IMG/VR virus record: IMGVR_UViG_3300020048_003360
Location: 1-64,000 of that record
Length of the DNA: 64,000 nucleotides
Direction: 5' to 3' (one strand)
From: a virus
Taxonomy: Duplodnaviria; Caudoviricetes
Part shown: positions 9,864 to 28,634 of the stretch, piece after piece
How positions within the stretch are numbered: position 1 is the stretch's first letter
How the letters are laid out: the number at the start of each line of letters is the position of its first letter
The notes under the pieces: generated by a model
What the model was told of the DNA's origin: nothing
Seen by the model: only the letters and a program-made list of their open reading frames with translations
Database searches by the model: none
Translations under genes and position numbers: made by a program

Positions 9864-9898
9864 ATTTACTCCATAGTGAAATATTAATAACGCCATAA

Positions 9899-9940
9899 GA
9901 CACATATTTCCCTATATACGACTGTAGGGGAATATGTGTC
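9899..9940. terminator. Stem-loop terminator downstream of the 2191-aa fibre gene
   Basis: gacacatatttccctat...gtaggggaatatgtgtc. Confidence 0.65.
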
Positions 9941-9967
9941 CTATATTGTTACAATTACAAATACAGT

Positions 9968-12900: not shown

Positions 12901-15900
12901 CACTACCATTAAAATTAACAGCCCAAGCTGCATCACCTGTAATGGCTATTGAACGTGTATTAGTCAAACTAGCAGCACTACCACTGGTATTCTGAGTACC
13001 AGCAGTATTTACACCTGGTAAATCAATGTTAGCAGAACCATTAAATGAAATACCACCTATAGTACGAGCTGTAGCTAAAGTAGTAGCAGTATTAGCATTG
13101 CCACTTAATGTAGCTGTAATAGTACCTGCTGAGAAATTACCAGAAGCATTACGTCTAACAGTACTATTGGCGGTATTTGTAGAAACTGCATAACCAATTT
13201 GAACATTAGTAAGAGTAGCAGTAACGTTTTCAAAAGCAGTTGGTTCAACACGTAATACCCATCCACTAGCATAGGCAGAAGAAAGACCACCATATCCAAC
13301 TTGAACTTCTGTAACAAAAAACTGAACATGTTTCCAAGCACTGGCTAATTCACCAATATAGATTGTTGCCTTACCACCTGCGGTATAACCAAATCTAATA
13401 GTAAGATTTCTGTCTATATTTGGATTACCAATAATATATGCAAATGGATAATTTGCCCATGAATTACCAGTACTCTGTGTATAACCACCACAAACAATTT
13501 CAAATGGTTTGTTTGTTGCATACTCAAATACTTTAATAGTTACTCTTACCATGCTATTAGTCATAGCTACTGGGAAAACTACCTGTAGTGCACCTGTAGT
13601 ATCCTGAACAACATGACTAAATGATCCACCAATAGGATTCGTAATACGAGAAAAATTAGAATCTATTAGATGTGATGAACTACCAGTAGTATTTTGATTA
13701 CCTGCAGTATTTACACCTGGTAAATCAATGTTAGCACTACCATTAAATGAAATACCACCTATAGTACGAGCTGTAGTTAGTAGAGCAGCACTAGCTACAC
13801 TCTTAGTACTATCAGCAGTATTATCCACATTACTTAAACCTACATCTGCTTTAACTAAAGTAACGGCTCCAGTTTTACCTGCTACTGATGTAACTGTATT
13901 GACTTGAGCACCTGTAGCAATACCATCTAACTTAGTCTTATCAGTAGAACTCATTACACCAGCTAATGTCGTAGTAGCTGCTGGTAACGTGGTGCCAGTA
14001 CCTGTAGAAGACGTTAGTGGAACAGTAGTGGTAGTTAATGTACCTTGACCTAGATTAGTAGCTACGTTAACTTGAGCACCTGTAGCAATACCATCTAGTT
14101 TACTAGCTTGGGTACTAGTCATATGGCCACTAACAGATGCAGTAGCCGCTGGAATAGAGATAGCTGGTGTATTGCCACCACTAGACACTATAGGGGCAGT
14201 ACCAGAAACAGCAGTTACACCAGAACTAGTGGCAAAACCTTGTGATTTTACATAAGCTGTAGTAGCAATTTGAGTAGTATTAGTATCTACAGATGCTGTA
14301 GGTGCTAGTGGAACACCTGTTAATGTGGGTGAAGCTAAATTAGCTTTTAGATTTAAGGCAGTTTGTTGTGCGGTAGACACTGGTTTATTAACATCACTAG
14401 TGTTATCTACGTTACCTAATCCTACATCGCCTTTAGCTAAAGTTACTACTCCAGTCCTACCAGCTACTGAATCTACTGCACCTGAAGTGATATAGACATA
14501 AGCAGTACCAGACCATCTATAGGTCTTGTTAGTATCTATAGCAACATAGATCTTACCAGTTTCACCTGTAGCTGGGAATCCAGCTAGATTAGCGTACTCT
14601 AGTACATCATCAACATAACTAGGTAGTTGTGCTGTAGGTACTTTACCACCAGCGTCTAGAGTAGCTACGCCATTTACAGCACCTTTTTCAGTACTAGCTA
14701 TTCTAGCAGTAGAGTCTACTGCATTAATAGTAATATTAGCAGAACCGTTGAAACTGACACCATTAATAGTGCGTGCTGTAGCTAAAGTAGTAGCTGTACC
14801 AGCATTACCAGTAACACCTATGCTCCAGGTACCAGATGCACCACCACCAGTTTTACTAGGTGCATCATTAGCTATTTCTGCATTTACGAAAGCAGTAGTA
14901 GCTACTTGAGTGGTATTGGTATTAACAGCAGCTGTAGGTGCAGATGGAATACCGCTTAATGCTGGAGAATCTAGATTGGCTTTTAAGTTTAAAGCAGTTT
15001 GTTGTGCAGTAGATACTGGTTTAGCTAAGTCACTAGTGTTATCTACATTGGCTAGACCCACCATGGATTTAGAAACACCTGATACAGTACCGGTAAAGGT
15101 AGGTGAAACTAAGTTAGCTTTTAGATCTAAAGCTGTTTGTTGAGCTGTACTAACTGGCTTATTAGCGTCAGACGTATTGTCCGCATTCGCTAGGCCTACC
15201 ATGGATTTAGTGATACCGGCTACAGTACCTGTAAATGTAGGTGACGCAATATTAGCTTTTAGATCTAATGCCGTTTGTTGTGCAGTTGAAACTGGTTTAG
15301 CAGTATCTGCAGTATTATCTACATTACCTAAACCTACCATAGATTTAGTAATGCCACTTACTGTACCAGTAAAAGTAGGACTAGCAATATTGGCTTTTAA
15401 AGCAATGGCTGTAGCTTGTGCTGTAGATACTGGTTTATTGGCATCAGACGTATTGTCTACGTTACCTAATCCTACATCACCCTTAACTAGAGTAACAATA
15501 CCTGTTTTACCAGCTACTGAATCTACTGCACCTGATGTGATATAGACATAAGCCGTACCAGACCATCTATATGTTTTATTTGTATCTTTTGCAACATAAA
15601 TCTTACCGGTTTCACCAGTAGCTGGGAATCCAGCTAGATTGGTATATTCTAGTACATCATCTACATAACTAGGTAACTGACTTGCTGGTACTAATCCAGT
15701 CGCATCTAGTGTAGCTACACCATTTGCTACACCTTTCTCGCTAACAGCAATTCTATCTACACTGTCACCAGCATTAATGGTGATATTAGCAGAACCATTA
15801 AATGAAACACCATTAATAGTTCTAGGTGTCTGTAGAGTAGTGGCAGTAGCTGCATTACCACCAATAGACTTAGATGCATCAGATGTATTATCTACGTTAC

Positions 15901-16543
15901 CTAAACCCACCATGGATTTAGTAATGCCGCCTACAGTACCTGTAAAGGTAGGAGACGCAATATTAGCTTTTAATGCATCTGCAGCAGCTTGAGCAGTAGA
16001 AACTGGTTTATTAACATCACTAGTATTGTCTACGTTAGATAGACCCACCATGGATTTAGTGACGCCAGATACAGTACCAGTGAATGTAGGAGATGCGATG
16101 TTGGCTTTTAGATCTATAGCACTTTGCTGTGCTGTAGATACTGGTTTATTAACGTCAGACGTATTATCAGCATTACCTAAACCAACCATAGATTTAGTGA
16201 CACCAGCTACAGTACCTGTGAAGGTAGGTGAAGCTAGATTAGCTTTTAGATTTAAAGCACTTTGTTGTGCGGTAGATACTGGCTTATTAGCGTCTGATGT
16301 ATTATCTACATTACCTAGACCCACATCGACTTTAGCTAGTGTGATATTGGTAGTTAATGCTTTGCCATTTACAGTAGTGGTTTTTGGCACTACTAGAGAC
16401 TCTAGTACAGCTATAGCTGCAGTTTGACTAGCTAAATTAGTAGCATCCGTACCTGCTACTGGAGCACCTACGTTAGTAATTGCTGCTCCATTATTATCTA
16501 GACCATTCTTTGCTACGAAACGTTTTGTTATTGCGAAAGTCAT
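9968..16543 (-). CDS. Giant fibre protein (2191 aa) with NVDNTSD repeats, shared fibre modules and the same C-terminal tip domain as 3455..9349
   Basis: Ten GL.N(V/A)DNT(S/A)D motifs, two QLPSYVDDVLEY..LAGFPATGETGKIYVA blocks, two LKPKASV modules plus one diverged. C-terminus: VTIPPNASVAYPVGATLQIMQIGAGKVTIAPGSGVTLNS. Confidence 0.8.
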   Translation of the reverse strand: MTFAITKRFVAKNGLDNNGAAITNVGAPVAGTDATNLASQTAAIAVLESLVVPKTTTVNGKALTTNITLAKVDVGLGNVDNTSDANKPVSTAQQSALNLKANLASPTFTGTVAGVTKSMVGLGNADNTSDVNKPVSTAQQSAIDLKANIASPTFTGTVSGVTKSMVGLSNVDNTSDVNKPVSTAQAAADALKANIASPTFTGTVGGITKSMVGLGNVDNTSDASKSIGGNAATATTLQTPRTINGVSFNGSANITINAGDSVDRIAVSEKGVANGVATLDATGLVPASQLPSYVDDVLEYTNLAGFPATGETGKIYVAKDTNKTYRWSGTAYVYITSGAVDSVAGKTGIVTLVKGDVGLGNVDNTSDANKPVSTAQATAIALKANIASPTFTGTVSGITKSMVGLGNVDNTADTAKPVSTAQQTALDLKANIASPTFTGTVAGITKSMVGLANADNTSDANKPVSTAQQTALDLKANLVSPTFTGTVSGVSKSMVGLANVDNTSDLAKPVSTAQQTALNLKANLDSPALSGIPSAPTAAVNTNTTQVATTAFVNAEIANDAPSKTGGGASGTWSIGVTGNAGTATTLATARTINGVSFNGSANITINAVDSTARIASTEKGAVNGVATLDAGGKVPTAQLPSYVDDVLEYANLAGFPATGETGKIYVAIDTNKTYRWSGTAYVYITSGAVDSVAGRTGVVTLAKGDVGLGNVDNTSDVNKPVSTAQQTALNLKANLASPTLTGVPLAPTASVDTNTTQIATTAYVKSQGFATSSGVTAVSGTAPIVSSGGNTPAISIPAATASVSGHMTSTQASKLDGIATGAQVNVATNLGQGTLTTTTVPLTSSTGTGTTLPAATTTLAGVMSSTDKTKLDGIATGAQVNTVTSVAGKTGAVTLVKADVGLSNVDNTADSTKSVASAALLTTARTIGGISFNGSANIDLPGVNTAGNQNTTGSSSHLIDSNFSRITNPIGGSFSHVVQDTTGALQVVFPVAMTNSMVRVTIKVFEYATNKPFEIVCGGYTQSTGNSWANYPFAYIIGNPNIDRNLTIRFGYTAGGKATIYIGELASAWKHVQFFVTEVQVGYGGLSSAYASGWVLRVEPTAFENVTATLTNVQIGYAVSTNTANSTVRRNASGNFSAGTITATLSGNANTATTLATARTIGGISFNGSANIDLPGVNTAGTQNTSGSAASLTNTRSIAITGDAAWAVNFNGSANASAALTLANSGVAVGTYRSVTVDAKGRVTAGTNPTTISGYGITDAYTKTEIDSQLQGLKPKASVLAASTANIALNTATATLDGVTLAAGSRVLLKNQTTGSQNGIYTNLTTTSWVRAVDADIASELVSAFVFVEQGTTQADSAWVQTADNITLGTTALTWVQFAGAGAYATAAHTHGNITNVGAIGTTANLPIITTTSGVLAAGSFGTAAATFCQGNDSRLSDSRAPTAHTQAVSTISDSTTIGQNLVKLANPSAVTFPRFNADNSITSLNAADFRSAIGAGTSSASGTVTSVGLSLPSIITVSGSPVTGSGTLTGTLATQSGALVFAGPLANTAAPTAAVPTFRNLEMTDIPGSAFKKSCRVATTGAITLNTATATLDGVTLAATDRVLIKDQATASQNGIYYNVTTTTWIRTVDSDISGEIASAITAIDEGLVNGGKAFTNTFKQTDTLGTTAMNWYELLDSSRLSSTVGTALGVAAIGDSTTLARANHVHPFPTAANVGAVATNTAITAGTATKITYDAKGLVTAGGSLVATDIPALDTAKITTGTLATARMPAFTGDATSVAGATALTLANSGVTAGTYRSVTVNAKGLVTAGTNPTTISGYGISDAYTKAEIDSQLQGLKPKASVLAASTANITLNTATATLDGVTLAAGSRVLLKNQTTGSQNGIYTNLTTTSWTRAVDADVNSELVSAFVFVEQGTANKDSAWVQTADNITLGTTALTWVQFAGAGAYQSIITGGATTITGSNLTVSRSLVSDASGKVAVSAVTSTELGYLTGVTSAIQTQIGTKANLASPALTGTPTAPTAAVNTNTTQVATTAFVNAEIANDAPSKTGTGASGTWGISVTGNAATVTNGVYTNTINYGTSINAQTGTAYTTVFSDAASVGNPTALVTMNNAAAQTVTIPPNASVAYPVGATLQIMQIGAGKVTIAPGSGVTLNSAGGLRSIGAQYGVVALVQLSANNWVLMGSLMA
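13800..16330 (-). repeat. 46-aa (138-nt) tandem repeats GL.NVDNTSD..KPVSTAQQ.AL.LKANIASPTFTGTV.G.TKSMV inside a larger nested duplication
   Basis: Ten motif copies counted in the translation; a 138-nt period is visible, e.g. 16127 vs 16265. Confidence 0.88.
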
Positions 16544-16615: not shown

Positions 16616-18817
16616 TTAAATAGTTATTGCAGTGCGGACTACTTTAATTGTACTATTGGTATTTACTGGAGATGCTACTAATTCTAAATTACCATTTATT
16701 AATTTAGTTGTGAATGTAGCCAATGCAGAGGCACCAGTGAAGATATTTGATACTTCAGTAATATACGGTTGAGTACCGTCATGGATACATAATATTTCAG
16801 AAACTTGATATTGAGTACCTGAAGTAACTTGAATAATGTATTTTACTGAACGACATACTGATGCCAATATAGTGTTTACTACTTGATTCTCTGTAGTGGT
16901 CGCTAATGTTACAGTACTAGATGTAATGGCGGCATCAGTTAGTGCTAAAACATTATTAACGATGCTATCCAATTTAATCTTATCGGCAGATGACATAAAG
17001 CCAGGTAAGACACTAGTGGCTTCACTATGAGTATGCGTTAATGGTGAGTATAAGCTAGCTACGTGTGGCTGTGATGCCAGTGTCTCTAAATTACCCACCA
17101 TACCGACCCTAAACATATCTACTGATTCGTCAAATACGAATTGATATTTTGGTAAATCACCACGATTTACAACAATACCAGCTAGATTAGCACTAACACC
17201 ATTACCTACTTGACCATAATTGACTTCAATCATGTTATCAATGGTAGTCACAGTAGTGGAATTAACTGTCGTAACACCACCATTTACAACTAAATTACCA
17301 GTAACAGTTAGACCACCAACAACTGTTTGACTGCCAGTTACTACTGAGTCACCATGTGTAGTAGTGGTAGGCGCAGTAAAAGCAATTGACTGTGCTGCAT
17401 TTACTAATACTTGCGAACCAACGCCAATAGCTTTTAATACTACATTAGCACTAGCTCCATTGGTAGAGAGTTCAGCATACTGGTTTGACGTCAATAAAGT
17501 AGCACCAACACCAGTTGTGGTAACGTTAATGGATTGACCAGGATCAGCTCTAATATTAATTACATCAGCATCAGTACCTAAAATAGGCGTATCGCCTAAA
17601 TATAGTGTATTTACACTTAAGTGTGCTTCATCTACATAAAGAGATCTAAATCTATGTGTTGGTGATCCGATATCACGTAGTTCCGTAACATCCGGTAAGA
17701 TATCGCCATATACAGTTAATTTTTTAGTTGAAAAATCTAATGCCTGATTACCACCAGCTAATGCTAGAGCAGCTTCGGCACTAGTGGCTCTGGTAACCTC
17801 AGCGGCAATAGCTGCAGCGTTAGTGGAATCACCACTTATTCTAGCAGCAACTTCAGTATCTAGTGAACTGATAATAGTATCTTCTACACCAGTAGCTCTA
17901 GTAACTTCAGCTAAAATTGTTGTATTTAATCTATTATCTTCTGTAGTAGATCTAGTAACTTCGGCGATTAAATTATCTGCTATTGTATTTTCTACATTAA
18001 TGGCTCTAGTAACTTCACTATTTAGTGAAGATAGAATAGCATTATCACCAGCTAACCTTAAACTAGCTTCATTACTGATGGCTGTTGTTCTATCTACGAC
18101 CTCATTAGACACGTCTAATTCACGCGCAGTGACCTCAGCTGATAGGGCAGTAGCCAGTGCAGTATCTCCGGCTATTCTAGAGGCTTCCTCAGTATCTACA
18201 TCGGCAATTCTAGCTGCTGTTTCTGTTGCTAATGCTTCCTCTACCGCTTCTGCAGATGCACTGGCATTAAATGTAATACTCTTAGTATTATCATCAAACG
18301 ATATAGTCATTCCATTGCCAGCTACCATATGTAGTGGTTGATTAGCATAGCCACGAATTTGTATATCCGTACCATCAGCAATAGTTGCGCTATCTATAAT
18401 AATTTGTTCAGTACCAACAACCACACACTTACCATTCTGTGGGGTATTAAATATCAATTGAAAAGAATTATTATCAATTTCAATTAATTGCGCAGCAGAG
18501 ATAGTTATGTTGTTATTATCTTGAATTTGATACCATGTCTCACTAGCTGGCGTATTTAGATTATGCACCACTGTCCAAGTAGTGGCTGGACTAACTTGAG
18601 TATGTAGGTAATTAGCAGTACCCATCTCTGGTTGGACTAATGGATACCAAGCTTGTACACCAGCTACTGTGATATAAGCGTATAATCCCAAACCAACAAT
18701 AGCTAAAGTACCTGGTTTGGGATTACTTGGGAAATCTAAATTATCCTTATCGATAATGAGTGCACCAGCAATTCTTAAATTAGCTAGTACTGATATTTGA
18801 TTCATTAAACTCGGCAT
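16616..18817 (-). CDS. Fibre/appendage protein (733 aa): N-terminal HNL domain, EVTRAT coiled-coil stalk, beta-rich shaft, C-terminal domain shared with 19557..20513
   Basis: HTQVSPATTWTVVHNLNT...FQLIFNTPQNG; repeated (A/S)EVTRAT; C-terminal SVKYIIQVTSGTQYQVSEILCIHDG. Confidence 0.7.
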   Translation of the reverse strand: MPSLMNQISVLANLRIAGALIIDKDNLDFPSNPKPGTLAIVGLGLYAYITVAGVQAWYPLVQPEMGTANYLHTQVSPATTWTVVHNLNTPASETWYQIQDNNNITISAAQLIEIDNNSFQLIFNTPQNGKCVVVGTEQIIIDSATIADGTDIQIRGYANQPLHMVAGNGMTISFDDNTKSITFNASASAEAVEEALATETAARIADVDTEEASRIAGDTALATALSAEVTARELDVSNEVVDRTTAISNEASLRLAGDNAILSSLNSEVTRAINVENTIADNLIAEVTRSTTEDNRLNTTILAEVTRATGVEDTIISSLDTEVAARISGDSTNAAAIAAEVTRATSAEAALALAGGNQALDFSTKKLTVYGDILPDVTELRDIGSPTHRFRSLYVDEAHLSVNTLYLGDTPILGTDADVINIRADPGQSINVTTTGVGATLLTSNQYAELSTNGASANVVLKAIGVGSQVLVNAAQSIAFTAPTTTTHGDSVVTGSQTVVGGLTVTGNLVVNGGVTTVNSTTVTTIDNMIEVNYGQVGNGVSANLAGIVVNRGDLPKYQFVFDESVDMFRVGMVGNLETLASQPHVASLYSPLTHTHSEATSVLPGFMSSADKIKLDSIVNNVLALTDAAITSSTVTLATTTENQVVNTILASVCRSVKYIIQVTSGTQYQVSEILCIHDGTQPYITEVSNIFTGASALATFTTKLINGNLELVASPVNTNSTIKVVRTAITI

Positions 18818-18874
18818 CTTGGTTCCTAAGAAAAGTTAATATTAATTACCGACATCACTGTTAATAAACTTTAT

Positions 18875-19567
18875 TTAAATTAAAGTATCGGACTTCATTA
18901 ATAGTTGTCTCACGTGTGTTCTTTCTACAATAGATAATCGCGCATCATATGTTTCGCAGTGCCTGCCAACAGTATGTTTTCTCCAAACATAACCGAATGT
19001 TTCTGGTAAGAATAACCAATCGCCAAATGCACTAGCTGCAGTATAAATTAATTGTTCGCCTTCAGCTAAATTAATTGTATTGCCATTCTTAAATAACTTA
19101 AGTAATTTATTAATTTTTTCAAGACTTTTCTTAACCACTATACGACGCATTACGCATAATTCATGTATGGGTCTAGCTTCTTTTAAATGAAACTCCCTAG
19201 TCCACTTATCGTGTTTATAAAATGGTCTAAGTGGGTTATGTCCATCATCAATATAACTATTGACATAAACGCCAACTATCGAGGGATTATTATCAAGTAC
19301 TTCACAACATTTGACAAATGGATTACCTATTACTAGATCATCATCGTTAATGTGGCTAACATATTCACTATTACCTAAACCATAACCAAGTGTTCTTAAA
19401 TTAATAGGTGAAAACGGATCATCATTATTAATTTGAAAAATATTTACATTAGGTAAAGCTAGTGTTTTGTAACACTCTACTTGCCATTTTTTATGTAGTA
19501 ATTTTTTATCTTCTGGTATGGTTATGATAGGGCGATTAGCTATATGTACATCAATATTAGGAACCAT
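18875..19567 (-). CDS. Glycosyltransferase family 2 (GT-A fold)-like protein
   Basis: RTLGYGLGNSEYVSHINDDDLV (DxD), VLDNNPSIVGVY, PIHELCVMRR, YVWRKH. Likely start ATG 19567 (MVPNID), overlapping the upstream stop by 11 nt; the track's MIPMEKIL x2 extension is a read-through of a 24-nt repeat. Confidence 0.72.
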   Translation of the reverse strand: MVPNIDVHIANRPIITIPEDKKLLHKKWQVECYKTLALPNVNIFQINNDDPFSPINLRTLGYGLGNSEYVSHINDDDLVIGNPFVKCCEVLDNNPSIVGVYVNSYIDDGHNPLRPFYKHDKWTREFHLKEARPIHELCVMRRIVVKKSLEKINKLLKLFKNGNTINLAEGEQLIYTAASAFGDWLFLPETFGYVWRKHTVGRHCETYDARLSIVERTHVRQLLMKSDTLI

Positions 19568-20513
19568 CAGGATCTTCTCCATAGGGATCATAAGGATCTT
19601 CTCCATAGGGATCAATAGATTCTGCTAATATAGCTGTACGCACTACTACAATATCTAAACCAACAGTTGTTGGAATAGCTAATAATTGAAAATTATCTGA
19701 TGATATATTTGCATCAAATGAAGCCAGTGCATTATTTCCAGTGTAAAATTCATATAGTGTTAATAAATACACTGACTGTCCATATATCACACACGTTAAC
19801 TCAGTACACTGTATACTGTCGATATGTCTAACTTGTATTAGATACTTAATCGTACTATAGAGTGAGGCAGGAACAAAATCAATTACTTGATTTGGTATTG
19901 TGTTTTCTAGTGATGTATTTACAGAACTAATAATAACATTAGTTAATTCCATACTGTTACTAATACCAGTTTTAGCTGTATTCGTAATAGTAATTGTTTT
20001 TGCTACATTATCAAATGTTAATTCAATTCCATCGCCAGCTACTATATTTAATTGTTCTTGATTACCGCGTGTTAATTTTAACTCCTCACCATCGCCAATA
20101 GTAAGATCGTCTATATGTAGATTACTAGTACCAATTACAGCTATGGTCCCACTTCTTGCCGAACTAAATAATAGTCTAAATGAATTATTATCTATTGGTA
20201 TTAACTGTAATGGAGTGATAAGTACTCCATTATTGTCTTTTACTTGATAATAATAATCTGTAGTATTTAAATCATGCTGAACTAACCAACTGACAGTAAG
20301 TTCAGATTGTGTACCGACATAGTTACTAACTGTATTGTGTTGACTAATGGAATACCATTTCAATACGCCAGCTACCGTAATATAGGCATATAAATCTAGC
20401 CCCTTCATTACCAACATGCCTGGAGTAGGATTAGTAGGAAAATCAATATTGGCTTCATCTAAAACTATAACGCCATTTGATAGGTTTCCTACTATAGAGA
20501 TTTGATTTGACAT
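19557..20513 (-). CDS. Short paralogue of 16616..18817 lacking the stalk
   Basis: NQISIVGNL..FPTNPTPG...LYAYITVAGV.KWY matches the 733-aa N-terminus; WLVQHDLNT domain; shared C-terminal STIKYLIQV...VVRTAI. Confidence 0.75.
   Translation of the reverse strand: MSNQISIVGNLSNGVIVLDEANIDFPTNPTPGMLVMKGLDLYAYITVAGVLKWYSISQHNTVSNYVGTQSELTVSWLVQHDLNTTDYYYQVKDNNGVLITPLQLIPIDNNSFRLLFSSARSGTIAVIGTSNLHIDDLTIGDGEELKLTRGNQEQLNIVAGDGIELTFDNVAKTITITNTAKTGISNSMELTNVIISSVNTSLENTIPNQVIDFVPASLYSTIKYLIQVRHIDSIQCTELTCVIYGQSVYLLTLYEFYTGNNALASFDANISSDNFQLLAIPTTVGLDIVVVRTAILAESIDPYGEDPYDPYGEDPDGS
19570..19614. repeat. 21-bp identical direct repeat, period 24 nt
   Basis: ggatcttctccatagggatca at 19570-19590 and 19594-19614, encoding the C-terminal DPYGEDPY-DPYGEDPD. 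Confidence 0.9.
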
Positions 20514-20530
20514 CCTACTAATCCTTAATA

Positions 20531-20962
20531 TTAAGCTGCATTAGGCAGCGATTGTTGTGTCCCTACAAAGTACGCATCACCATTTAGTACTTTAATCACT
20601 ATATCCAAGTAGATATATTGCTGTCTAATAGTTTTTAACTTTACTTCTGGTGTCTGTACTATTGAATCCATTGTAATTTGTATCTTATCAATCCACGCTT
20701 CCATTTGTTTTGGATTGATATTTTTACTAATATACAAACGCATAGCTGGTGGACGTACTAATGGCATTGTCTTACTACTTAGAATACCTTCCATCCATCT
20801 ATATTTTTTCTTTACAGACACCACATAATCAAAAAATATCTTACGTTGGGCAGATGATTTAAAATCTATTTCAGTAGATAGATTTCGTAATATCTTTAAA
20901 CTATCTTGAATATTGCTATGGGCTGCTTTAAATTCAGTAGCTACTTCTTCGCTCATAATCAT
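20531..20962 (-). CDS. Hypothetical protein (143 aa)
   Basis: Clean ORF with an ATGA overlap with the upstream stop; no recognised motif. Confidence 0.7.
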   Translation of the reverse strand: MIMSEEVATEFKAAHSNIQDSLKILRNLSTEIDFKSSAQRKIFFDYVVSVKKKYRWMEGILSSKTMPLVRPPAMRLYISKNINPKQMEAWIDKIQITMDSIVQTPEVKLKTIRQQYIYLDIVIKVLNGDAYFVGTQQSLPNAA

Positions 20963-21516
20963 GGATTACTACTCCAAGTAATAGCCAATACTTCTTCTGG
21001 TGTAGTGGCATTTGAAATAAAATAACGTTTATAATTAAAGTTCATGAGTAAAGCTAATTTATAAGCAGCACCATCCGCCATTACTTGTCTAAATTGAGTA
21101 TGTGTGTGTGGCTTATAATCTTTTGGTTGCGTTATGTTATCAATAACTTCACGTACTGCATAATACATTAGACCACCATCTGGTTCAGTAGGTGTGGGTA
21201 ATGTAGATGTAGTTGCACCAATGAGGTTTAATTGATCTACTTCATCGCTATCGTATATGTGTCGACTACCTAATGCACTACTAAAAAAACCCCCTCTAAT
21301 AGCGTCTTGACAGATAGTACTTAGGTTATCTATAGCGGTGATTTTTAGATCCTCGAATATAAAGTCATCTAAAACTGCTTTACTTGGAATATAGTCACCA
21401 CCATCATGTATTAGTGATTCGTATTTCTCTAACATTGTACCATTAATTGCGGTACCGGTGCAGTGTACAAATACAGTTGGAAAATACTTACCTATGCATT
21501 CAACGTAACCTAACAT
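20959..21516 (-). CDS. DUF4376-like tail-fibre-associated/assembly protein
   Basis: FSSALGSRHIYDSDEVDQLNLIG, HTHTQFRQVMADG, ISNATTPEEVLAITW. Confidence 0.65.
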   Translation of the reverse strand: MLGYVECIGKYFPTVFVHCTGTAINGTMLEKYESLIHDGGDYIPSKAVLDDFIFEDLKITAIDNLSTICQDAIRGGFFSSALGSRHIYDSDEVDQLNLIGATTSTLPTPTEPDGGLMYYAVREVIDNITQPKDYKPHTHTQFRQVMADGAAYKLALLMNFNYKRYFISNATTPEEVLAITWSSNP

Positions 21517-21517
21517 C

Positions 21518-22408
21518 TTATTGTCCCCTTATTGTCCAGCTATTCAAACAGCTAGGACCACCTACAGTAGCTGACGATGTACGTCCTAGATACCATGTGG
21601 CAGCACCAGAAACACCTATCCTACAAGAATACACGACTGGAGTAGTGGTATTTGGTGAATCTACCACACTAAATCCAATTGATTGTGGCCTATTGGCACT
21701 GTTGCCATTAACACATGCAAAGGCAATCAGTGTACTGCCTCTAAATAAAGTTAATGTTATTGTTCTGTTATTTGTATTAGTGTCTACAGTCGTAAGAAAA
21801 TTAATATCAAATTTTTCATTACTACTTAGTGGCGTTATGGATTGACTCCATAGTTGAGATCCACTGGTTACCAATGGAGGCGTATTATCTACCGCTATTT
21901 GTGTCGATCCAGACATCATCCCTACACTACCACTAAAAAATCGTGAGTTAGTGGTCATAGCTGCAGCAATCGCACTTTTTACAAACGCAGTATTTGCCAC
22001 ATTGGATGAATTATCAGTAGTGACCATTGTTGGTACAGTTACTGGTGTAGCGATAGTTAGGCCTGCTGTAGACATCATCATCTGATAGGGTCCTTCAGAC
22101 GTACCCCAGAGTAATCTACCGTATAGATTTCTATACGCTAAATCACCAGCCAATGAGTTACTACACCAATCGCCATTAACAAAACAATATCCTAACCATG
22201 CATTATCACCAGGTTCGCCACTACCAAAAGCAGATGGTCCATTAGTAGGTAAACTAACCCATAATCCTTGATTGGGATTAAATATAGTAGTTTCAAGCTG
22301 CCTGTCTTCTGGACCCGTTACTAAGCTCACAACACTAAGCGTATCACTTGCTTGCAACTGCTGTATATCACCATTACTATCTAAGACTAAAGGTATTCTC
22401 TGTGCCAT
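21518..22408 (-). CDS. Short fibre-like virion protein
   Basis: TDNSSNVANTAFVKSAI fibre motif; N-terminus MAQRIPLVLDSNGDIQQLQASD shared with 22472..23875. Confidence 0.65.
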   Translation of the reverse strand: MAQRIPLVLDSNGDIQQLQASDTLSVVSLVTGPEDRQLETTIFNPNQGLWVSLPTNGPSAFGSGEPGDNAWLGYCFVNGDWCSNSLAGDLAYRNLYGRLLWGTSEGPYQMMMSTAGLTIATPVTVPTMVTTDNSSNVANTAFVKSAIAAAMTTNSRFFSGSVGMMSGSTQIAVDNTPPLVTSGSQLWSQSITPLSSNEKFDINFLTTVDTNTNNRTITLTLFRGSTLIAFACVNGNSANRPQSIGFSVVDSPNTTTPVVYSCRIGVSGAATWYLGRTSSATVGGPSCLNSWTIRGQ

Positions 22409-22421
22409 AGTGTGCCTCTTA

Positions 22422-22462
22422 AAATAATCTACTATTTTGATACCTAAAATAGTAGATTATTT
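22422..22462. terminator. Stem-loop terminator
   Basis: aaataatctactatttt...aaaatagtagattattt. Confidence 0.7.
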
Positions 22463-22471
22463 AGTACTTAA

Positions 22472-23875
22472 TTATAGTTGAATTCTAGCACCAACCGATA
22501 CTTTAAGTTTAGTAGTGCTTAGTGCCTGACCTATTCTGACTACATAACCAGATGTGGGCACTACAGTGGTGATTCTACCAGCAACAGTATTGCTTAGGAA
22601 ATAAGCAGCACCAGGTACTAGACCACCAGATCCACCAACTACAGCATCCCATTGAGCCGCAGTGGCCTCCATAGTGCTGCCTGTATTCACAGTACCACTA
22701 GCACCATTACTAATAGTAGTGGAGACTAATCCAACTGGTAGTGATGTAGCGGCAATATCAGCTCTAGATAACTTAAATGTATTGGAAGAATCAGTATAGA
22801 CACAACTACAAATTGGTACACTAGCGCCTTGATTATTCGTCAGTAGTGTGAGCGATGGTGCAATAACTCCAGCAAAAATAGGAACGTCAGTAGAACTTAG
22901 ACCTAATGAAGTGAGCGCTCCTGGGACTGTAGATGCACCAGTACCACCATTAGCAACAGCCACTACACCAGTAACGTTACTGGCAGTACCGGTAGTATTC
23001 TGATTTAGTATTGGAAAATCAGCAGGTACAGCAATGCTAGGAGCACCAGTACCGGTGGTATTTTTAAGAATACCAGTGGCTAGAGTAGATAGCTGAACAC
23101 CATTTAGTCTACGCACCGTAACCGTAATGTCGGTACTACCACTACCAGTAGCATCCCCACTGAGTGTAATGTTTTGGTTAGCTGAAATAAATCCATCTGG
23201 ATTACTTGCGTTATATGGAACATATCCAAATCCACCAGATTCAATAGACCAATTACTAGCTATTTGACCAGGAGCATCCTCTAGTGCCCGTACAGTACCA
23301 CCTACAGAAAATCCAAGTAATGGACCAGATGTAGCAACAGTACCAATTGTCCAGATATCTCCCTTTAAAATAGCTCCAGAAGCACCACTACCACCAGCTA
23401 CTGGATATGTATTAATAGAAGCATTAAATGAACCACGATCATCCCATAGGCCTACTACTAGACTCTCAGCATATGTGTTAGCGGTTGTTAGTATAGCACT
23501 ATCTGCTGCAGCTTGAGCAGTAGATACTGGTTTATTAATATCAGACGTATTATCAACATCACCTAAACCAACTAAAGCTTTAGTGATTGTTATATTAGTA
23601 GATAGTGCTAGTCCATTTACAGTGGTGGTCTTAGGTACTGCTGCATCAGCAACTGCTTGAGCAGCTGCAACACTACTTGTCAAAGTTGCTTCTGCTGATG
23701 TAGCTCTGTTAGTCTCGGCAGTTAAAGCTAGTGCAGATGCCGCACCTAGCGAGATTAGTGCGTCACCAGCAGTAATGGCACCAGTACCGCCATTGGCAAT
23801 ATCTACATAATCGCCAGTCTGCATTAATTGTAATTCTGCATTTACGTCTAGAGTTAGTGGTTTTTTAATAGCCAT
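22472..23875 (-). CDS. Fibre-like protein with a C-terminal decoration/cement-like domain
   Basis: Likely start ATG 23875 (MAIKKPLTLD). Contains ANGGTGA and DVDNTSDINKPVSTAQ motifs. C-terminus: SLPVGLV...GLVPGAAYFLSNTVAGRITT.VP..GYVVRIGQALSTTKL. Confidence 0.65.
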   Translation of the reverse strand: MAIKKPLTLDVNAELQLMQTGDYVDIANGGTGAITAGDALISLGAASALALTAETNRATSAEATLTSSVAAAQAVADAAVPKTTTVNGLALSTNITITKALVGLGDVDNTSDINKPVSTAQAAADSAILTTANTYAESLVVGLWDDRGSFNASINTYPVAGGSGASGAILKGDIWTIGTVATSGPLLGFSVGGTVRALEDAPGQIASNWSIESGGFGYVPYNASNPDGFISANQNITLSGDATGSGSTDITVTVRRLNGVQLSTLATGILKNTTGTGAPSIAVPADFPILNQNTTGTASNVTGVVAVANGGTGASTVPGALTSLGLSSTDVPIFAGVIAPSLTLLTNNQGASVPICSCVYTDSSNTFKLSRADIAATSLPVGLVSTTISNGASGTVNTGSTMEATAAQWDAVVGGSGGLVPGAAYFLSNTVAGRITTVVPTSGYVVRIGQALSTTKLKVSVGARIQL

Positions 23876-23895
23876 TTTAACATCCATATTAAAAA

Positions 23896-24588
23896 TTAAA
23901 GGGTTATAGTTCTATCTACTTTAACTATAAATTCAGTGGTAGATATAGACCTACCTAATAAACAACAATATTGAGAATTACTAACTAATGGTGATGTTGT
24001 TATTTTTCCTGAATTTACACTAAGAAAGTAATTTGTATTTGGAATTAGTTCAGTAAAAGTATCTGTAACCATAGCCCATTGTTCCACAGTTCCCACTATT
24101 CTACCGTGTAGTGTTATTTCTCCACTACCGCCATTACTTAAAATAGTATTATTAGATACAAATCCAAGTACGTTCTTTTCTACTATATCGTTAGCTGACG
24201 CTGGACCCACTGAGCCATCAGCTAATAAATAAACTGGTTGACCAAATAATAAATTATTATTTGTATTATTTAATACTGTATTTCTCAATACACTACTTAT
24301 TGCTTCGCTAATTGAAACGGTAGTAGCGTTAATTATTGATGTGGCGTTATCATTAATTTGATTACTTATTACGTTTAAATCACCATCATGTAGTAAGCGT
24401 CTTATTACTGGAAAATATCCAGCTAATTCATTATAACTTACCCTACTTAAGGCAGCATTATACCAAAGTTTAAATAGATGCTCATTATTGGGATCCATTA
24501 AACGCTGTTCTAATTCAAAATTACGTACCTCAGTATCACTTCCCTTAAGGTTGATGGCCCCATGGATCTTTATGCCGTCGGTGCTCAC
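23896..24588 (-). CDS. Adaptor-like protein: N-terminus shared with 24664..26454, C-terminal cement-like domain shared with 22472..23875
   Basis: KIHGAINL...NFELEQ..DP...LWYN; GQPVYLLADG...NVLGFV...LIPNTNYFLS..GKITT.P...LGRSISTT. Confidence 0.65.
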   Translation of the reverse strand: MSTDGIKIHGAINLKGSDTEVRNFELEQRLMDPNNEHLFKLWYNAALSRVSYNELAGYFPVIRRLLHDGDLNVISNQINDNATSIINATTVSISEAISSVLRNTVLNNTNNNLLFGQPVYLLADGSVGPASANDIVEKNVLGFVSNNTILSNGGSGEITLHGRIVGTVEQWAMVTDTFTELIPNTNYFLSVNSGKITTSPLVSNSQYCCLLGRSISTTEFIVKVDRTITL

Positions 24589-24615
24589 AGTGCCTCTCTC
24601 CTTAACGTAGATGAA

Positions 24616-24650
24616 ATAAAAGGGAAACCATTTACTGGTTTCCCTTTTAT
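24616..24650. terminator. Stem-loop terminator
   Basis: ataaaagggaaacca-tttac-tggtttcccttttat. Confidence 0.75.
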
Positions 24651-24663
24651 AGTGGTTTAGCTA

Positions 24664-26454
24664 TTATAGTGCAGCGTTAGACTGACCAGAAGCCTTAACA
24701 TCACTAGACTCAGTCAAAGTGATGGTGTAGCTATTGAGGTCGACATCTTGAACAGGCATGATGTCGTTACGCCAGATACCATCACTACCCTTAACCATAA
24801 TGTTAGCAGAATAGAACTGGGTACCGAGGTTATGAGTAACGGTATGGACCAATGCTGGTGCGCTAGACATGTAGGTGTAACGCTTAGCATTCAAGCTAGC
24901 GGTAAGAGCAACAGCACCATCACCAGCAGACGCAGCTAGTGCACTAACTTGTGCTTGTAGATCTGCTTCAGCGGCAGTAGCACGAGTAACTTCACCAGCT
25001 AGGTTGGTGGTCAATACACCTTCAGCAGCAGTTGCACGAGTTACTTCGGCAGCTAGATTGGTGGTTAGTGTGTTGACAGATGCGGTGGTGGCTGCAGTGA
25101 TGCCTGCTTCAGCAGCTAGAGCGCGAGTTACTTCGTCAGTAATCTGGGTCTGTAGGTTAGGAATAGCTGAAGTGTTAATGGCATTAATTTCATTAGCATT
25201 AACCTTGATAGCGGCATCCAAAGCCATGTCAGCACCAGCAAGGGTAGTGGTGCTACCGATGTAGTTACTACCGACTGGCTGAGCGTAGGTACCATCGCCA
25301 TTTAGACCAGCTGCGGTCTCAATAGCGTCGAGTTCAGTTTGGTGTGCGTTATCAGCAGTAGTGCGTGCTAGTACTTCAGCAGCAATAGCGGCATCGTGAG
25401 CTAGGTCGGCATCAGTACGAGCAACAGTTTCGGCAGCAATAGCAACTTCATTGGCCTTAACTGCAGTGTCCAATAGCTTAGAAGCGGCTAGAAGACTAGG
25501 TGCGGCGTTAATATAGTTGGTATCTGCAATGACAGCCAAAGTACCGTTGAGTTCTAGACCAGAAGCAACTTCGATTGCGTCGATTTCAGCTTGTTGAGCA
25601 GTGTCGGCAGCAATACGAGCAGCGGCTTCAGAAGCATCAGCATTAGCATTGTCAGTAACGGCAGCATTGACATAAGCAGTAAGCTGAGTCTGTAGGCTAG
25701 TGTCAGCGGCAATACGGGCGGTTTCTTCAGCAGTTAGTGCTGCACCAAGAATAGAGTCTTGATTGGTAGAACGAGCTACCTCAGCAGTGATAGCTGCATC
25801 TAGAGCAATGTCAGCACCTTTCTGGGTGGTAACCGCACCTAGATAAGTGGTATTGGCAGGTGCGGTGTAAGTACCATCAGAATTTAGACCGAGGGAAACT
25901 TCCATTAGGTCAACTTCAGCTTGGGTCGTATCAATACGAACGCCTAGAGCTAGATCAGCAGCTTCACGAACACTGGCTTCAGCACCTAATGCGGTAGTTG
26001 CATTAGCGGCATCAGCAACGTTAGCAGCAGCAGCATCAGCAGCCACTACAGCATCAGCAGCAATACGAGCGGTTGCTTCAGCAGCATCGCCAGCAATACG
26101 AGCAGACGCTTCGGTAGCTAGATCAGCAGCTAAAGCAGCTTCGGCAGCTAGAGCACGAGTAGCTTCAGCGGCAATAGCGGTATTAGCAGTATCGCCTAGA
26201 TTGGTGATAGAGGTATTGATGGCGCTAACTGCAGCAGCTAGTGCCTCAGCAGAACCAAAAGTATTGACACGTAGTGCACCACCAGAATCTACGTCGCAAT
26301 ATTTGTATGCTTTTTGAGCAGTGTTGTACCAGCTGCGACCAGCAACTAGAGGAATTGCATCAGTAGATAGCGGATCTACTGCTAGATGCTCAATAACTAG
26401 ATTGGCAAACTTGCTATTGAGTGCTAGTTGAATACCATGGAACTTATGTGACAT
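24664..26454 (-). CDS. Ala-rich coiled-coil fibre (596 aa) with C-terminal HNL domain
   Basis: Many AAEVTRATAAE/EAAARIAAD repeats; three IE...GLN.DGTY..P...YLG..T....AD.ALDAA turns; C-terminal VHTVTHNLGT. Confidence 0.75.
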   Translation of the reverse strand: MSHKFHGIQLALNSKFANLVIEHLAVDPLSTDAIPLVAGRSWYNTAQKAYKYCDVDSGGALRVNTFGSAEALAAAVSAINTSITNLGDTANTAIAAEATRALAAEAALAADLATEASARIAGDAAEATARIAADAVVAADAAAANVADAANATTALGAEASVREAADLALGVRIDTTQAEVDLMEVSLGLNSDGTYTAPANTTYLGAVTTQKGADIALDAAITAEVARSTNQDSILGAALTAEETARIAADTSLQTQLTAYVNAAVTDNANADASEAAARIAADTAQQAEIDAIEVASGLELNGTLAVIADTNYINAAPSLLAASKLLDTAVKANEVAIAAETVARTDADLAHDAAIAAEVLARTTADNAHQTELDAIETAAGLNGDGTYAQPVGSNYIGSTTTLAGADMALDAAIKVNANEINAINTSAIPNLQTQITDEVTRALAAEAGITAATTASVNTLTTNLAAEVTRATAAEGVLTTNLAGEVTRATAAEADLQAQVSALAASAGDGAVALTASLNAKRYTYMSSAPALVHTVTHNLGTQFYSANIMVKGSDGIWRNDIMPVQDVDLNSYTITLTESSDVKASGQSNAAL

Positions 26455-26514
26455 GTTGAATACCTTTTATAAAAGATGGTTGGGTTTACTACTATTAGTA
26501 AATGCACTTACTAA

Positions 26515-27534
26515 TTATTGGCAAGAATTCAAATAGAATGTTACATACGCAACACCTACTTCTGGATCCGTAAAGTGTATCGTAAATTCACTATTATTGA
26601 TATGGTCAACAGAGCTCTCATGTACAGTATCGCCATTACTATTTTTTATAATGGTAGAAAATGCACATGTTCCTATATTGTGTCTAATATTCCAGGATAC
26701 ACTCGGAGATGTAAATGGATATATCGCCACTATAGTGCCGTGTGCCGAAGCTATTATGTTCGCAAGTGCAGTCTGACTAACCAATAGTGCTGCTTGATTA
26801 GCTGCTAAAGCAATTTGCGTTTGTAATAATAGTTCATTAATATCTGCTGTACTTAATGCTTCTAATGAAGCTAAAGCATTTTGGGTAGCAGATATCAAAC
26901 TATTCACTTCAGCTTGACCTGAACTTAATAAATTATTTACAGCAGTTTGACTATTATTAACTAAATAATCAATTCCAGTTTCTGCTGCAGAAACCATTGA
27001 GGAAACTGCATCTTGACTAGAATTTAATAATGTACTTAACTGAGTCTGACTGCTGTTTATTAGTGTTGCTACATCAGCATTACCATTAGCCACTAAGGCA
27101 TCTATACTAGCCTGAGTATTGGTAATTAATGAAGCCAGTATTGTGTCATCACTGGCTAATTCTGCAGCTACTGCAGCATGAATAACGTCTATAGCTTCAG
27201 TTTGTGCAGCATGAATGGAATCAATAGCTGTCTGATTACTATCGAGTACTGTAGCAATAGCGGCATTACTATTATTAATTACTGTTTGTCCAGCTGTTAT
27301 TATCGCAGCTATTTCATCATTACCACTACTGATCATTGCGTCAATAGTGGCCTGGCTGGTACTTGTAAAGTTACCAAGAGTAGCTAGAGCGTCAGCAGCT
27401 ATCTTAGCTAATGATGGATAATTACCATCACCCCCTACAACTGTTACACTAGCATCACCCTTAACAAAATCGTGTACTAGTTTTACATCATTTTGAAACG
27501 AGTTTAATAAATCATTTAAGTTGGTAGCTGACAT
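26515..27534 (-). CDS. Coiled-coil fibre/spike with N-terminal attachment motif and C-terminal HNL domain
   Basis: N-terminal VHDFVKGDASVTVVGGDGNYPSLAK (tailspike-type attachment motif as recalled), long amphipathic helix, C-terminal SWNIRHNIGT...NEFTIHFTDPEVG. Confidence 0.65.
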   Translation of the reverse strand: MSATNLNDLLNSFQNDVKLVHDFVKGDASVTVVGGDGNYPSLAKIAADALATLGNFTSTSQATIDAMISSGNDEIAAIITAGQTVINNSNAAIATVLDSNQTAIDSIHAAQTEAIDVIHAAVAAELASDDTILASLITNTQASIDALVANGNADVATLINSSQTQLSTLLNSSQDAVSSMVSAAETGIDYLVNNSQTAVNNLLSSGQAEVNSLISATQNALASLEALSTADINELLLQTQIALAANQAALLVSQTALANIIASAHGTIVAIYPFTSPSVSWNIRHNIGTCAFSTIIKNSNGDTVHESSVDHINNSEFTIHFTDPEVGVAYVTFYLNSCQ

Positions 27535-27559
27535 TATTTAACCTCCATATCAGCCATAG

Positions 27560-28060
27560 TTAACTCAGATACCCAAGTGTCGGAAATTCAACATTCACTA
27601 AATCATTTAAAGCATTAGCAATTGTTGGGAATCCCATAAATAAGGATAGATTAGTTTCACCTACCCAATTTATGGAAGTTGGCTTTGCCTGTAAAGACAT
27701 AGTCACAATATCGCCTATCCTCATATTAGGTATGTTCAATGCCACTATATCTGTATCCGATAAGAAAATACAATTCCTATCAGAATTTAATAAAGAAATA
27801 GCACTATCACTGGTAAACTGAGTATCTGAAAAAAGCCAGACTGTGCTGTTTAAGTCTAAGAAATTAATACGCTCATAAAATAGAGTTACTTCACCGACAT
27901 AACCAGATCCGGCTATTGAACTAACAATAATTTTTGTATTTCCATTACCATTATTATTTACTTCTGGTGGTGAAAATGAAATATTATCAAGAGTAAAAGG
28001 ATGTGTTGTTGGGTTAGCGGCATTAATTAAACTAAGAAGTTGGTCGTACTGTGAGGACAT
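27560..28060 (-). CDS. phiKZ-type small virion structural protein (paralogue of 28071..28634)
   Basis: LLSLINAANP...NTKIIV.S..GSGY.G.VTLFYERI. Confidence 0.6.
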   Translation of the reverse strand: MSSQYDQLLSLINAANPTTHPFTLDNISFSPPEVNNNGNGNTKIIVSSIAGSGYVGEVTLFYERINFLDLNSTVWLFSDTQFTSDSAISLLNSDRNCIFLSDTDIVALNIPNMRIGDIVTMSLQAKPTSINWVGETNLSLFMGFPTIANALNDLVNVEFPTLGYLS

Positions 28061-28070
28061 AATCCAGCCT

Positions 28071-28634
28071 TTAGTAGTTAATTAATGCATGTAGTGGAGG
28101 TTTGGTATAAAACAAACCATTTAAGATAGGGTTATGCAATATGACACTAAGTATTAACTGACCGGCTTTTTCTATTTTTAAAGTAAGTTTGTTAATAAAT
28201 ATTAATGATGATTCAGCCATGATTAAATCGATATCGATTTGTTCATTGGGTATATTACCTATAATTGGTAATGTACTATTAATATAATCAACTGAAGTTA
28301 AACGTATACCGAATCTATTATTTATAGCTTCTATTATGTCAGATAAGGTAACTTCATCTTCTAAACCAAAAACTACACTCTTACCAATAGCTAACTCAGC
28401 TATATCTACTCTATTGTAACGTAATGTAGCTTTGCCTGTAAAATAACTACCTACAGCAGGACTAACAGTGACTTTAGAATTATGTCTACCAGATTGAACT
28501 AAAGTGGGTATACCAAATACTAATTCGTTTGGTTTAAATCTAGTACCATTATCATTATTTATTAAGTTTATTACTAACTGTTCTGGTGGTAATTGATAAT
28601 CTAAATTTACAAATGGAATGGCATTAATAAACAT
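28071..28634 (-). CDS. phiKZ-type small virion structural protein
   Basis: LVINLINNDN...FG.P...NSKVTV.P..GSYF.G.ATLRYNRV, the same pattern as its neighbour. Confidence 0.6.
   Translation of the reverse strand: MFINAIPFVNLDYQLPPEQLVINLINNDNGTRFKPNELVFGIPTLVQSGRHNSKVTVSPAVGSYFTGKATLRYNRVDIAELAIGKSVVFGLEDEVTLSDIIEAINNRFGIRLTSVDYINSTLPIIGNIPNEQIDIDLIMAESSLIFINKLTLKIEKAGQLILSVILHNPILNGLFYTKPPLHALINY

Follow-up and report, generated by a model that had tools for sequence, protein, structure and literature searches.

In the 2026 atlas of the jumbo phage phiKZ, twelve hetero-hexameric fibres are described on a 107-nm baseplate, and the N-termini of gp131 to gp135 are modelled as one hetero-hexameric fibre base (PMC13250141). 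The DUF7941 proteins, which the paper on phage Goslar reports from chimalliviruses only, form filaments in vitro and are predicted to assemble into head-to-tail oligomers, and a gp126-gp127 dimer of phiKZ was fitted into the peripheral baseplate (PMC13742148). In the 2026 structures of phiKZ and Goslar the peripheral baseplate and the fibres are largely unmodelled. Here we analyse a row of appendage genes at positions 16,616 to 28,634 of a 64,000-nucleotide window (the whole stretch of DNA that was studied), which opens IMG/VR record IMGVR_UViG_3300020048_003360, a 208-kb record with an estimated completeness of 78%. The virus is an uncultured phiKZ-like jumbo phage, probably of the chimalli- type.

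Like phiKZ gp131-gp135, the locus consists of neighbouring fibre genes with a common N-terminal module and differing distal parts, the difference being that its modules are others. The initial annotation had proposed a single branched fibre tree in which like domains co-oligomerise, far more elaborate than the fibres of phiKZ. Since the phiKZ and Goslar structures of 2026 this last comparison is out of date, and next to phiKZ the locus has ceased to stand out. The modules are truly shared, and we conclude that the graph which they form reflects common building blocks and docking ends, and not physical links of like with like. Our preferred reading, to which we give a probability of about 0.45, is that the locus is a mosaic of appendage genes whose products fall into at least three separate docking classes, possibly with capsid head fibres derived from decoration proteins among them.

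According to this reading, the stretch would be the lineage-specific part of a late virion-appendage operon, just downstream of conserved neck and DUF7941 genes, and its approximately ten structural proteins would be mosaics of about eight modules that arose as genes were duplicated in tandem and exchanged modules. Docking on the particle would fall to the conserved N-terminal modules, while stalk length and C-terminal domains vary. In a first class, the products of 28071 and 27560 (genes are named by their first coordinate in the window; Table 1) would link head to tail at the peripheral baseplate, like phiKZ gp126/gp127. In a second, 19557 and 16616 would have an anchor-plus-HNL N-terminus and end in a gp9-like jelly roll, which would be a distal binder or a socket for a fibre. 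In a third, 21518, 22472 and 23896 would derive from small beta-tulip decoration proteins, with the N-arm, the tulip or both seating them on the capsid as head fibres that would carry different outer heads. The module folds, the family relationships and the turnover are observations; the contacts between proteins are in every case what we infer.

Modules shared by the proteins of the locus

An all-against-all BLASTP comparison bore out most of the module links that had been claimed. The products of 16616 and 19557 are related over their N-terminal 186 amino acids (aa; 45% identity, E 1.4e-46) and again over their C-terminal 112 aa (35%, E 5e-16). Those of 22472 and 23896 have in common a C-terminal domain of approximately 90 aa (37% identity, E 8.5e-10), and 27560 and 28071 are 32% identical over 117 aa (E 1.2e-6), both passing the Pfam model DUF7941. 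The shared N-termini of 21518 and 22472 were recovered independently with a profile of this N-arm that was built from the first 32 residues of 106 small proteins, none of them from this genome. Run on the 231 six-frame open reading frames of the window, it matches the N-termini of these two proteins only (E 3.6e-9 and 1.8e-4; next best 0.49).

Other links stood in part. The HNL domain claimed for the C-termini of 26515 and 24664 is clear in 26515, with an E of 9.4e-7 for a profile built from the 16616/19557 type only and BLASTP values of 2e-4 and 1e-3 for the HNL domains of 16616 and 19557 against this C-terminus. In 24664 the same profile gives E 0.0058, which is at noise level; its orthologues in two relatives score 4.2e-4 and 1.4e-6, and for this reason the domain is probably present there too. 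The common N-terminus of 23896 and 24664, here N-motif B, is marginal, with a Smith-Waterman z of 4.6 for hand-picked segments and profile E-values of 0.045 in one direction and 1.5 in the reverse. The description of three pairs as having one long and one short member is strictly true for 16616/19557 only, given that the other pairs differ in their distal domains, beyond the length of the stalk. Treating all N-termini as a single module was also considered and dropped, the profile-profile probability between N-motif B and the N-anchor A of 16616/19557 being 0.25%.

Two links absent from the initial annotation were found by BLASTP. Ala-rich stalk repeats are common to 16616 and 24664 (E 6e-6), and a fibre repeat is common to 22472 and the 2191-aa gene 9968 (E 8e-16), which ties the locus to the neighbouring mosaic of giant genes that had been described separately. 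This repeat, of the GLG-D/N-V-D-N-T-S-D type (residues 69-128 of 22472, window 23522-23680), is present in at least four copies in 9968-16543, with 65-74% identity. Taken as a whole, the module graph joins every protein of the locus except the DUF7941 pair.

Beta-tulip and N-arm proteins

The C-terminal domain of 22472 and 23896 had been called cement-like in the initial annotation, and this was right both in sequence, through its capsid-decoration kin, and in its beta-tulip fold. In the AlphaFold2 (AF2) model of 23896 the domain spans residues 102-225 with a predicted local distance difference test score (pLDDT) of about 80, the N-terminal 100 residues being of low confidence. Foldseek searches with this domain return almost exclusively capsid decoration proteins. 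The VIA Z-score is 10.3 for the decoration protein of HFTV1 (8qsy; root-mean-square deviation (rmsd) 3.2 Å over 110 residues), 10.2 for that of mycobacteriophage Adjutor (8saj), 6.4 for the base of the phi29 head fibre gp8.5 (6qyy) and 6.2 for lambda gpD (1c5e). In its own genome the tulip profile matches 22472 with E 2.9e-50.

The sequence relatives of 23896 include proteins of 154-157 aa that consist of a short N-arm and a tulip domain, the arm having the consensus MA-x-KKPLVL...G..EQLQ.GD..D. One relative (P0010), which a search of 5.8 billion sequences matched at E 9e-4, passes the Pfam model Phage_cement_2 (PF09956; 29.1 bits versus a cut-off of 24). The family of small arm-plus-tulip proteins has at least 380 members, and in two contigs of approximately 37 kb they directly follow a portal or ClpP-type protease gene as two adjacent paralogues. 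Given this arrangement, 22472 and 23896 may descend from an ancestral pair of decoration genes. The two contigs are unrelated phage contigs, with the paralogue pairs at L008 9523-10471 and L010 9477-10468.

By its sequence, 22472 is a decoration-family protein with approximately 340 residues inserted between arm and tulip, while 23896 is a tulip behind a different N-terminus and 21518 is the arm on a C1q/Pgp3-like knob. For this knob, the Pgp3 C-domain match is below threshold (E 0.0039, 17.4 bits versus a cut-off of 25), and the neighbouring Atlas clusters contain C1q in 11-29% of their members or Chlam_vir in 16%. The start codons of two of these genes are uncertain: 23896 is called from a GTG (24588), and a relative (P0007) starts 11 residues later; for 22472 (23887) the second ATG (23875) is the probable start, because the N-arm family begins with MA-x-KKPL.

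With lambda gpD, P74-26 Dec, the Phage_cement_2 proteins and phi29 gp8.5, the trio shares the tulip fold (in 23896), a family-type N-arm and, as in the small head-module relatives, the occurrence as adjacent paralogue pairs. It differs from them in that the tulip is C-terminal, with 100-380 aa of other material before it, in that the arm and tulip of 22472 are split by a fibre-like insert, and in that 21518 has the arm without a tulip. Beta-tulip proteins bind capsids as trimers. In P74-26 the N-arm of Dec pairs with the E-loop of the capsid protein and extends as far as the next trimer's tulip (PMC6775164). Chimeric oligomers are known of SHP with gpD, and the head fibre gp8.5 of phi29 stands on a tulip base (PMC7602432). 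That the cement domain belongs to a capsid-decoration family points to a place on the particle apart from that of the gp9-like and DUF7941 parts. A position of the arm/tulip class on the capsid is in our view slightly more likely than one on the tail, because its kin are proteins of head modules and its fold matches are mainly decoration proteins.

Several points weigh against the reading as a mosaic with capsid head fibres. The tulip genes sit in a fibre cluster, neither beside the major capsid protein nor in a head-morphogenesis module, and the description of the Goslar capsid contains no tulip-type decoration protein. The C-terminal position of the tulip contrasts with the N-terminal base of the phi29 head fibre, and the window's own tulip domains give no Pfam match (none for 23896 residues 110-230 even at E 10). 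A match of the fold is also given by the phi29 tail appendage gp12, in its C-terminal auto-chaperone (Z 7.5, rmsd 2.8 Å over 93 residues, 17% identity). Of the two proteins modelled with AF2, 23896 and 19557, the N-terminal halves are poorly modelled, and by analogy with phiKZ gp131-135 the paralogous N-termini may form heteromers. The places of all these proteins in the virion are ones that we infer for an uncultured phage known here from its genes alone.

The match to gp12 and the setting among tail-fibre-like genes with a DUF4376/phrog_1348 accessory also favour the explanation that survives best next to the preferred one, namely that all the products are tail or baseplate fibres, that the tulip is a distal, C-terminal trimerisation or auto-chaperone module, and that the N-arm was recruited as a baseplate plug. 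Fibres usually have a proximal N-terminus and a distal C-terminus, and the relatives of this phage keep the N-modules and swap the C-termini. By sequence the trio is nonetheless akin to small proteins that phage head modules encode, among them a Phage_cement_2 member, and decoration proteins give structural matches that are both stronger (Z about 10) and by far the more frequent. We consider an all-tail reading possible, if rather unlikely.

Within the reading with capsid head fibres, a more specific arrangement can be drawn, which we regard as distinctly unlikely: a jumbo phage of the nucleus-forming type with capsid-anchored head fibres on a decoration scaffold, in which the N-arm is a universal plug for swappable heads. 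The tulips of 23896 and 22472 would form trimers on the capsid, and the arm would bind the E-loop of the capsid protein, a neighbouring tulip or both, as the P74-26 Dec arm does. The C1q-like knob of 21518, or the 463-aa body found behind the arm in a relative, could then be swapped onto one site. This would be a daisy chain made by contacts of arm to tulip, not of like with like.

The gp9-like domain of 16616 and 19557

In the AF2 model of 19557, residues 191-302 have a pLDDT above 90, and residues 1-60 and the linker 134-191 are of low confidence. The C-terminal eight-stranded jelly roll superposes on residues 169-288 of T4 gp9 (1qex) with a VIA Z of 14.2 and an rmsd of 2.3 Å over 111 residues. 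It also matches a baseplate chain of Klebsiella phage KP1 (Z 11.8), the C-terminal domains of Acinetobacter tailspikes (Z 7.4-10.5) and 138 predicted viral structures at E<=1e-3, several of which are named tail fibre, in cyanophages. 19557 resembles T4 gp9 further in its size (318 versus 288 aa) and in its equal three-part layout, and differs from it in being only 14% identical and in having no match to an N-terminal domain such as gp9 and gp10 carry. For this domain (PF07880, T4_gp9_10_N), Pfam gives no match at E 0.1 for 19557 or 16616, the sole lead to it in the locus being a weak Atlas structural match for 26515.

The predicted gp9-like fold marks 16616 and 19557 as proteins of the tail type. 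In T4, the long tail fibre is joined coaxially onto gp9's C-terminal domain (PMC3004832), and going by the model the domain could be a socket for a further fibre or a plain distal domain; given that the same fold ends Acinetobacter tailspikes and many cyanophage tail fibres, a role as socket is not implied. In 16616, residues 593-628 (window 16934-17041) carry a motif of the S-A-D-K-I-K-L-D type, a common fibre junction motif, which matches FtbO of 9j1l at E 2.8e-6; to judge by the neighbouring entry 9j1k, this FtbO is probably a monocin tail-tip component.

The HNL domain

A profile of the four HNL copies of the window and their orthologues was run on 1.84 billion representative proteins and matches 3190 of them at E<=1e-3, 578 at E<=1e-10. 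The best 150 are mostly of 600-3200 aa, with 3-11 separate matching stretches each, and one protein with tandem HNL copies ends in an endosialidase-chaperone domain, typical of fibres. In a second class, the domain lies at residues 51-140 behind an N-anchor of the 16616/19557 type, in proteins of 148-1264 aa. The N-module of 19557 is otherwise found only in hypothetical proteins of approximately 200 aa of Erwinia and Dickeya jumbo phages, stand-alone anchor-plus-HNL proteins such as AD1_094, which give no functional lead.

HNL is therefore a generic repeat building block of phage fibres and, as it occurs in so many proteins and often in 3-11 tandem copies, the sharing of HNL implies no contact. 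AF2 models the domain in 19557 as a small beta-sandwich (pLDDT 76-94) whose structural neighbours are weak only: the match to residues 187-250 of CBA120 TSP4 (Z 5.1, rmsd 1.9 Å over 55 residues) is within the chance range for a small sandwich, there is no sequence match to gp10-like families, and among Protein Data Bank (PDB) sequences the HNL profile gives only a marginal match to the 'capsid decoration protein' 9nx3 (E 0.35). The branched complexes of CBA120 TSP2/TSP4 and of phiKp24, which have T4 gp10-like domains, resemble the locus in that many fibre or spike genes lie together; the difference is that HNL is usually a tandem repeat, not a branching adaptor. Since Pfam has no model for a domain that is common in thousands of proteins, HNL is a candidate for a new domain family entry.

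The DUF7941 pair

Both proteins exceed the gathering cut-off of PF25613 (27), 28071 with E 2.3e-27 and 96.6 bits and 27560 with E 4.8e-21 and 75.9 bits. 28071 also matches phrog_1037, a virion structural protein. They are the only DUF7941 copies of the whole record. A complex prediction for the two gave 0.51, versus 0.02 for the best control, with at least 66% of the contacts agreeing between runs and a partner pLDDT of at least 79, which is weak support, given that a pass at or below 0.60 is more often wrong than right unless binding is already likely. Of 80 solved complexes 58 attained the mark used, as did 2 of 110 mismatched pairs, and the prior for binding is raised here by the published gp126-gp127 model.

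In phiKZ gp126/gp127, Goslar gp22/gp23 and the 'paralog family B' of SPN3US, as here, an adjacent pair of approximately 170-190 aa lies in the structural region beside the neck genes, and the DUF7941 part of the finding is already known. The locus differs from Goslar in having two DUF7941 copies in the record versus ten, and neither copy carries a sugar-binding head.

Module turnover among relatives

The locus has kept its order in three uncultured relatives, with orthologues at 37-68% identity. In one of them (L005; orthologues 46-68% identical), the syntenic place lacks the trio 23896/22472/21518 and the glycosyltransferase gene, the locus is otherwise intact, and a third protein with a gp9-like domain is present. 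Another (L020) has the tulip pair and the N-arm pair, with N-arms 59% identical over 39 residues; the protein that has the arm only carries a quite different 463-aa body, the protein with anchor A ends in another C-terminus, and the 26515-like protein is of 176 aa only, consisting of the N-terminus and HNL with the central stalk gone. Between this shortened gene and the DUF7941 pair, L020 3706-4414 holds a 62-aa RRXRR (HNH-like) fragment, which may be the scar of a homing-endonuclease event. Counted over genomes, proteins with the gp9-like domain number two in the window, three in L005 and none in the part of L020 that was examined.

Fibre-gene mosaicism classically shows, as here, in N-modules that are kept, distal parts that are swapped and stalks that vary, and the trio 21518-23896 is gained or lost as a cassette across the relatives. 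Of the loci compared, three have both an N-arm-only protein and a tulip protein and one has neither, a sample too small for a judgement on whether the two go together. Concerted evolution of the N-arms within the genome was looked for and not seen, 13 of 37 positions being identical within the window versus 23 of 40 between orthologues. In Burkholderia phage FLC9, the syntenic region holds an expanded DUF7941-type array in place of the fibre genes of this phage, and none of the other modules of the locus.

These comparisons bear on the tree of the initial annotation, in which shared domains would co-oligomerise through HNL-HNL and cement-cement contacts and N-terminal heterotrimers. Precedents exist in the phiKZ fibre base of three gp131 with gp133, gp134 and gp135 (PMC13250141), in DUF7941 networks (PMC13742148) and in the SHP/gpD chimeric oligomers (PMC7602432), a gp9-like socket domain could carry a further fibre, and the module graph reaches all proteins but the DUF7941 pair. 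With HNL a generic tandem repeat, the trio a dispensable cassette, the distal domains swapped, the cement family one of capsids, the number of gp9-like proteins varying between relatives and the N-arms showing no excess of similarity within the genome, joining of like domains into one branched tree is not supported, and we consider it highly unlikely. A hierarchy through unlike contacts, of socket to fibre or arm to tulip, is possible. That some members are decaying duplicates or non-structural, and the graph in part evolutionary debris, would fit the uncertain starts of 23896 (GTG) and 22472 in proteins known from genes alone, and is made extremely improbable by intact frames throughout, by orthologues at 37-68% identity in three relatives and by tight, operon-like spacing.

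Gene content and surroundings

All genes of the locus lie on the minus strand with tight, operon-like spacing, and their coordinates are unchanged from the initial annotation (Table 1).

Table 1. Proteins encoded in the locus, listed in the direction of transcription; positions are those of the window.
Feature	Position	Strand	Basis or remark
DUF7941 protein, 187 aa	28071..28634	-	corresponds to phiKZ subunits of the gp126/gp127 type (filament or peripheral baseplate)
Second DUF7941 protein, 166 aa, adjacent paralogue	27560..28060	-	PF25613
339-aa fibre protein: conserved N-terminus, Ala/Gln-rich repeat stalk, C-terminal HNL (~26518-26769)	26515..27534	-	HNL profile
596-aa fibre protein: N-motif B, long Ala-rich repeat stalk, probable C-terminal HNL (~24664-24918)	24664..26454	-	orthologue HNL scores
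230-aa protein: N-motif B and C-terminal beta-tulip (capsid decoration/cement) domain (~23899-24291)	23896..24588	-	AF2 model, structure matches
471-aa protein: decoration-family N-arm, GGTG motifs, fibre repeat, globular middle, C-terminal beta-tulip (~22475-22843)	22472..23887	-	profiles, BLASTP
296-aa protein: decoration-family N-arm and C1q/TNF/Pgp3-like C-terminal knob	21518..22408	-	N-arm profile, sub-cut-off Pgp3 match
185-aa DUF4376/phrog_1348 protein, tail-fibre-associated accessory	20959..21516	-	phrog_1348 match
143-aa conserved protein, no family match	20531..20962	-	orthology
318-aa short fibre/adaptor: N-anchor A (residues 1-57), HNL (~20097-20360), linker, gp9 C-domain-like jelly roll (~19608-19943)	19557..20513	-	AF2 model
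GT-A-like glycosyltransferase between the paralogues 19557 and 16616	18875..19567	-	phrog_14775, weak
733-aa long paralogue of 19557: N-anchor A and HNL (~18380-18655), Ala-rich stalk, beta-rich shaft, gp9-C-like domain (~16622-16960)	16616..18817	-	BLASTP

On the 5' side in the direction of transcription lie paralogous internal head proteins of the phiKZ type and a 521-aa protein, together with a 459-aa protein that carries the Pfam 'head-tail joining' domains PF24214/PF24215 and proteins of 205 and 452 aa, both conserved among phiKZ-like phages. The 459-aa protein is 39-43% identical at the amino acid level to those of its nearest cultured phages, FLC9 and the Ralstonia phages RP12/RP31. On the 3' side are genes for two giant fibres, of 2191 and 1964 aa, and for two propeller proteins, the propeller-type heads being placed outside the locus, at window 2148-3389 and 3-2108. 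With head, neck and DUF7941 genes upstream and giant fibre and propeller genes downstream, the locus is therefore where an uncultured phiKZ-like phage encodes its appendages, and the initial description of a virion-appendage locus whose proteins are tied together by shared modules is borne out. Against cultured phages, megablast of the 12-kb locus and tblastn of 23896 and 21518 gave no matches, and PDB sequence searches with 22472, 28071 and 26515 returned nothing usable.

Between the fibre genes, 20959 matches phrog_1348 (E 1.7e-25) and, under the cut-off, DUF4376 (E 3.8e-4); it has orthologues in L005 and L020 and is kept in all relatives. 20531, with no Pfam or PHROG match, is 60% identical to its L005 orthologue and is always paired with the DUF4376 gene. 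In L020, the 20959-like protein (9707-10270) gives a weak match to the tulip profile (E 0.0023), which is unexplained and possibly due to chance. The glycosyltransferase 18875-19567, weakly assigned through phrog_14775 (E 0.0076), is an insertion specific to this phage, the corresponding fibre genes of L005 being only 20 bp apart (L005 10882-10902).

Implications

In this locus, a distant uncultured branch has replaced the usual expansion of DUF7941 with gp9-like, HNL, coiled-coil and decoration-derived modules. Should the tulip and N-arm proteins be located on the capsid, chimalliviruses would have their first head fibres of such a type, and the proteins would show in compact form how a decoration protein's arm can serve anew as the plug for binding heads that are exchanged. 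In other respects, the locus is one more case of the well-known mosaicism by which phage fibre genes evolve.

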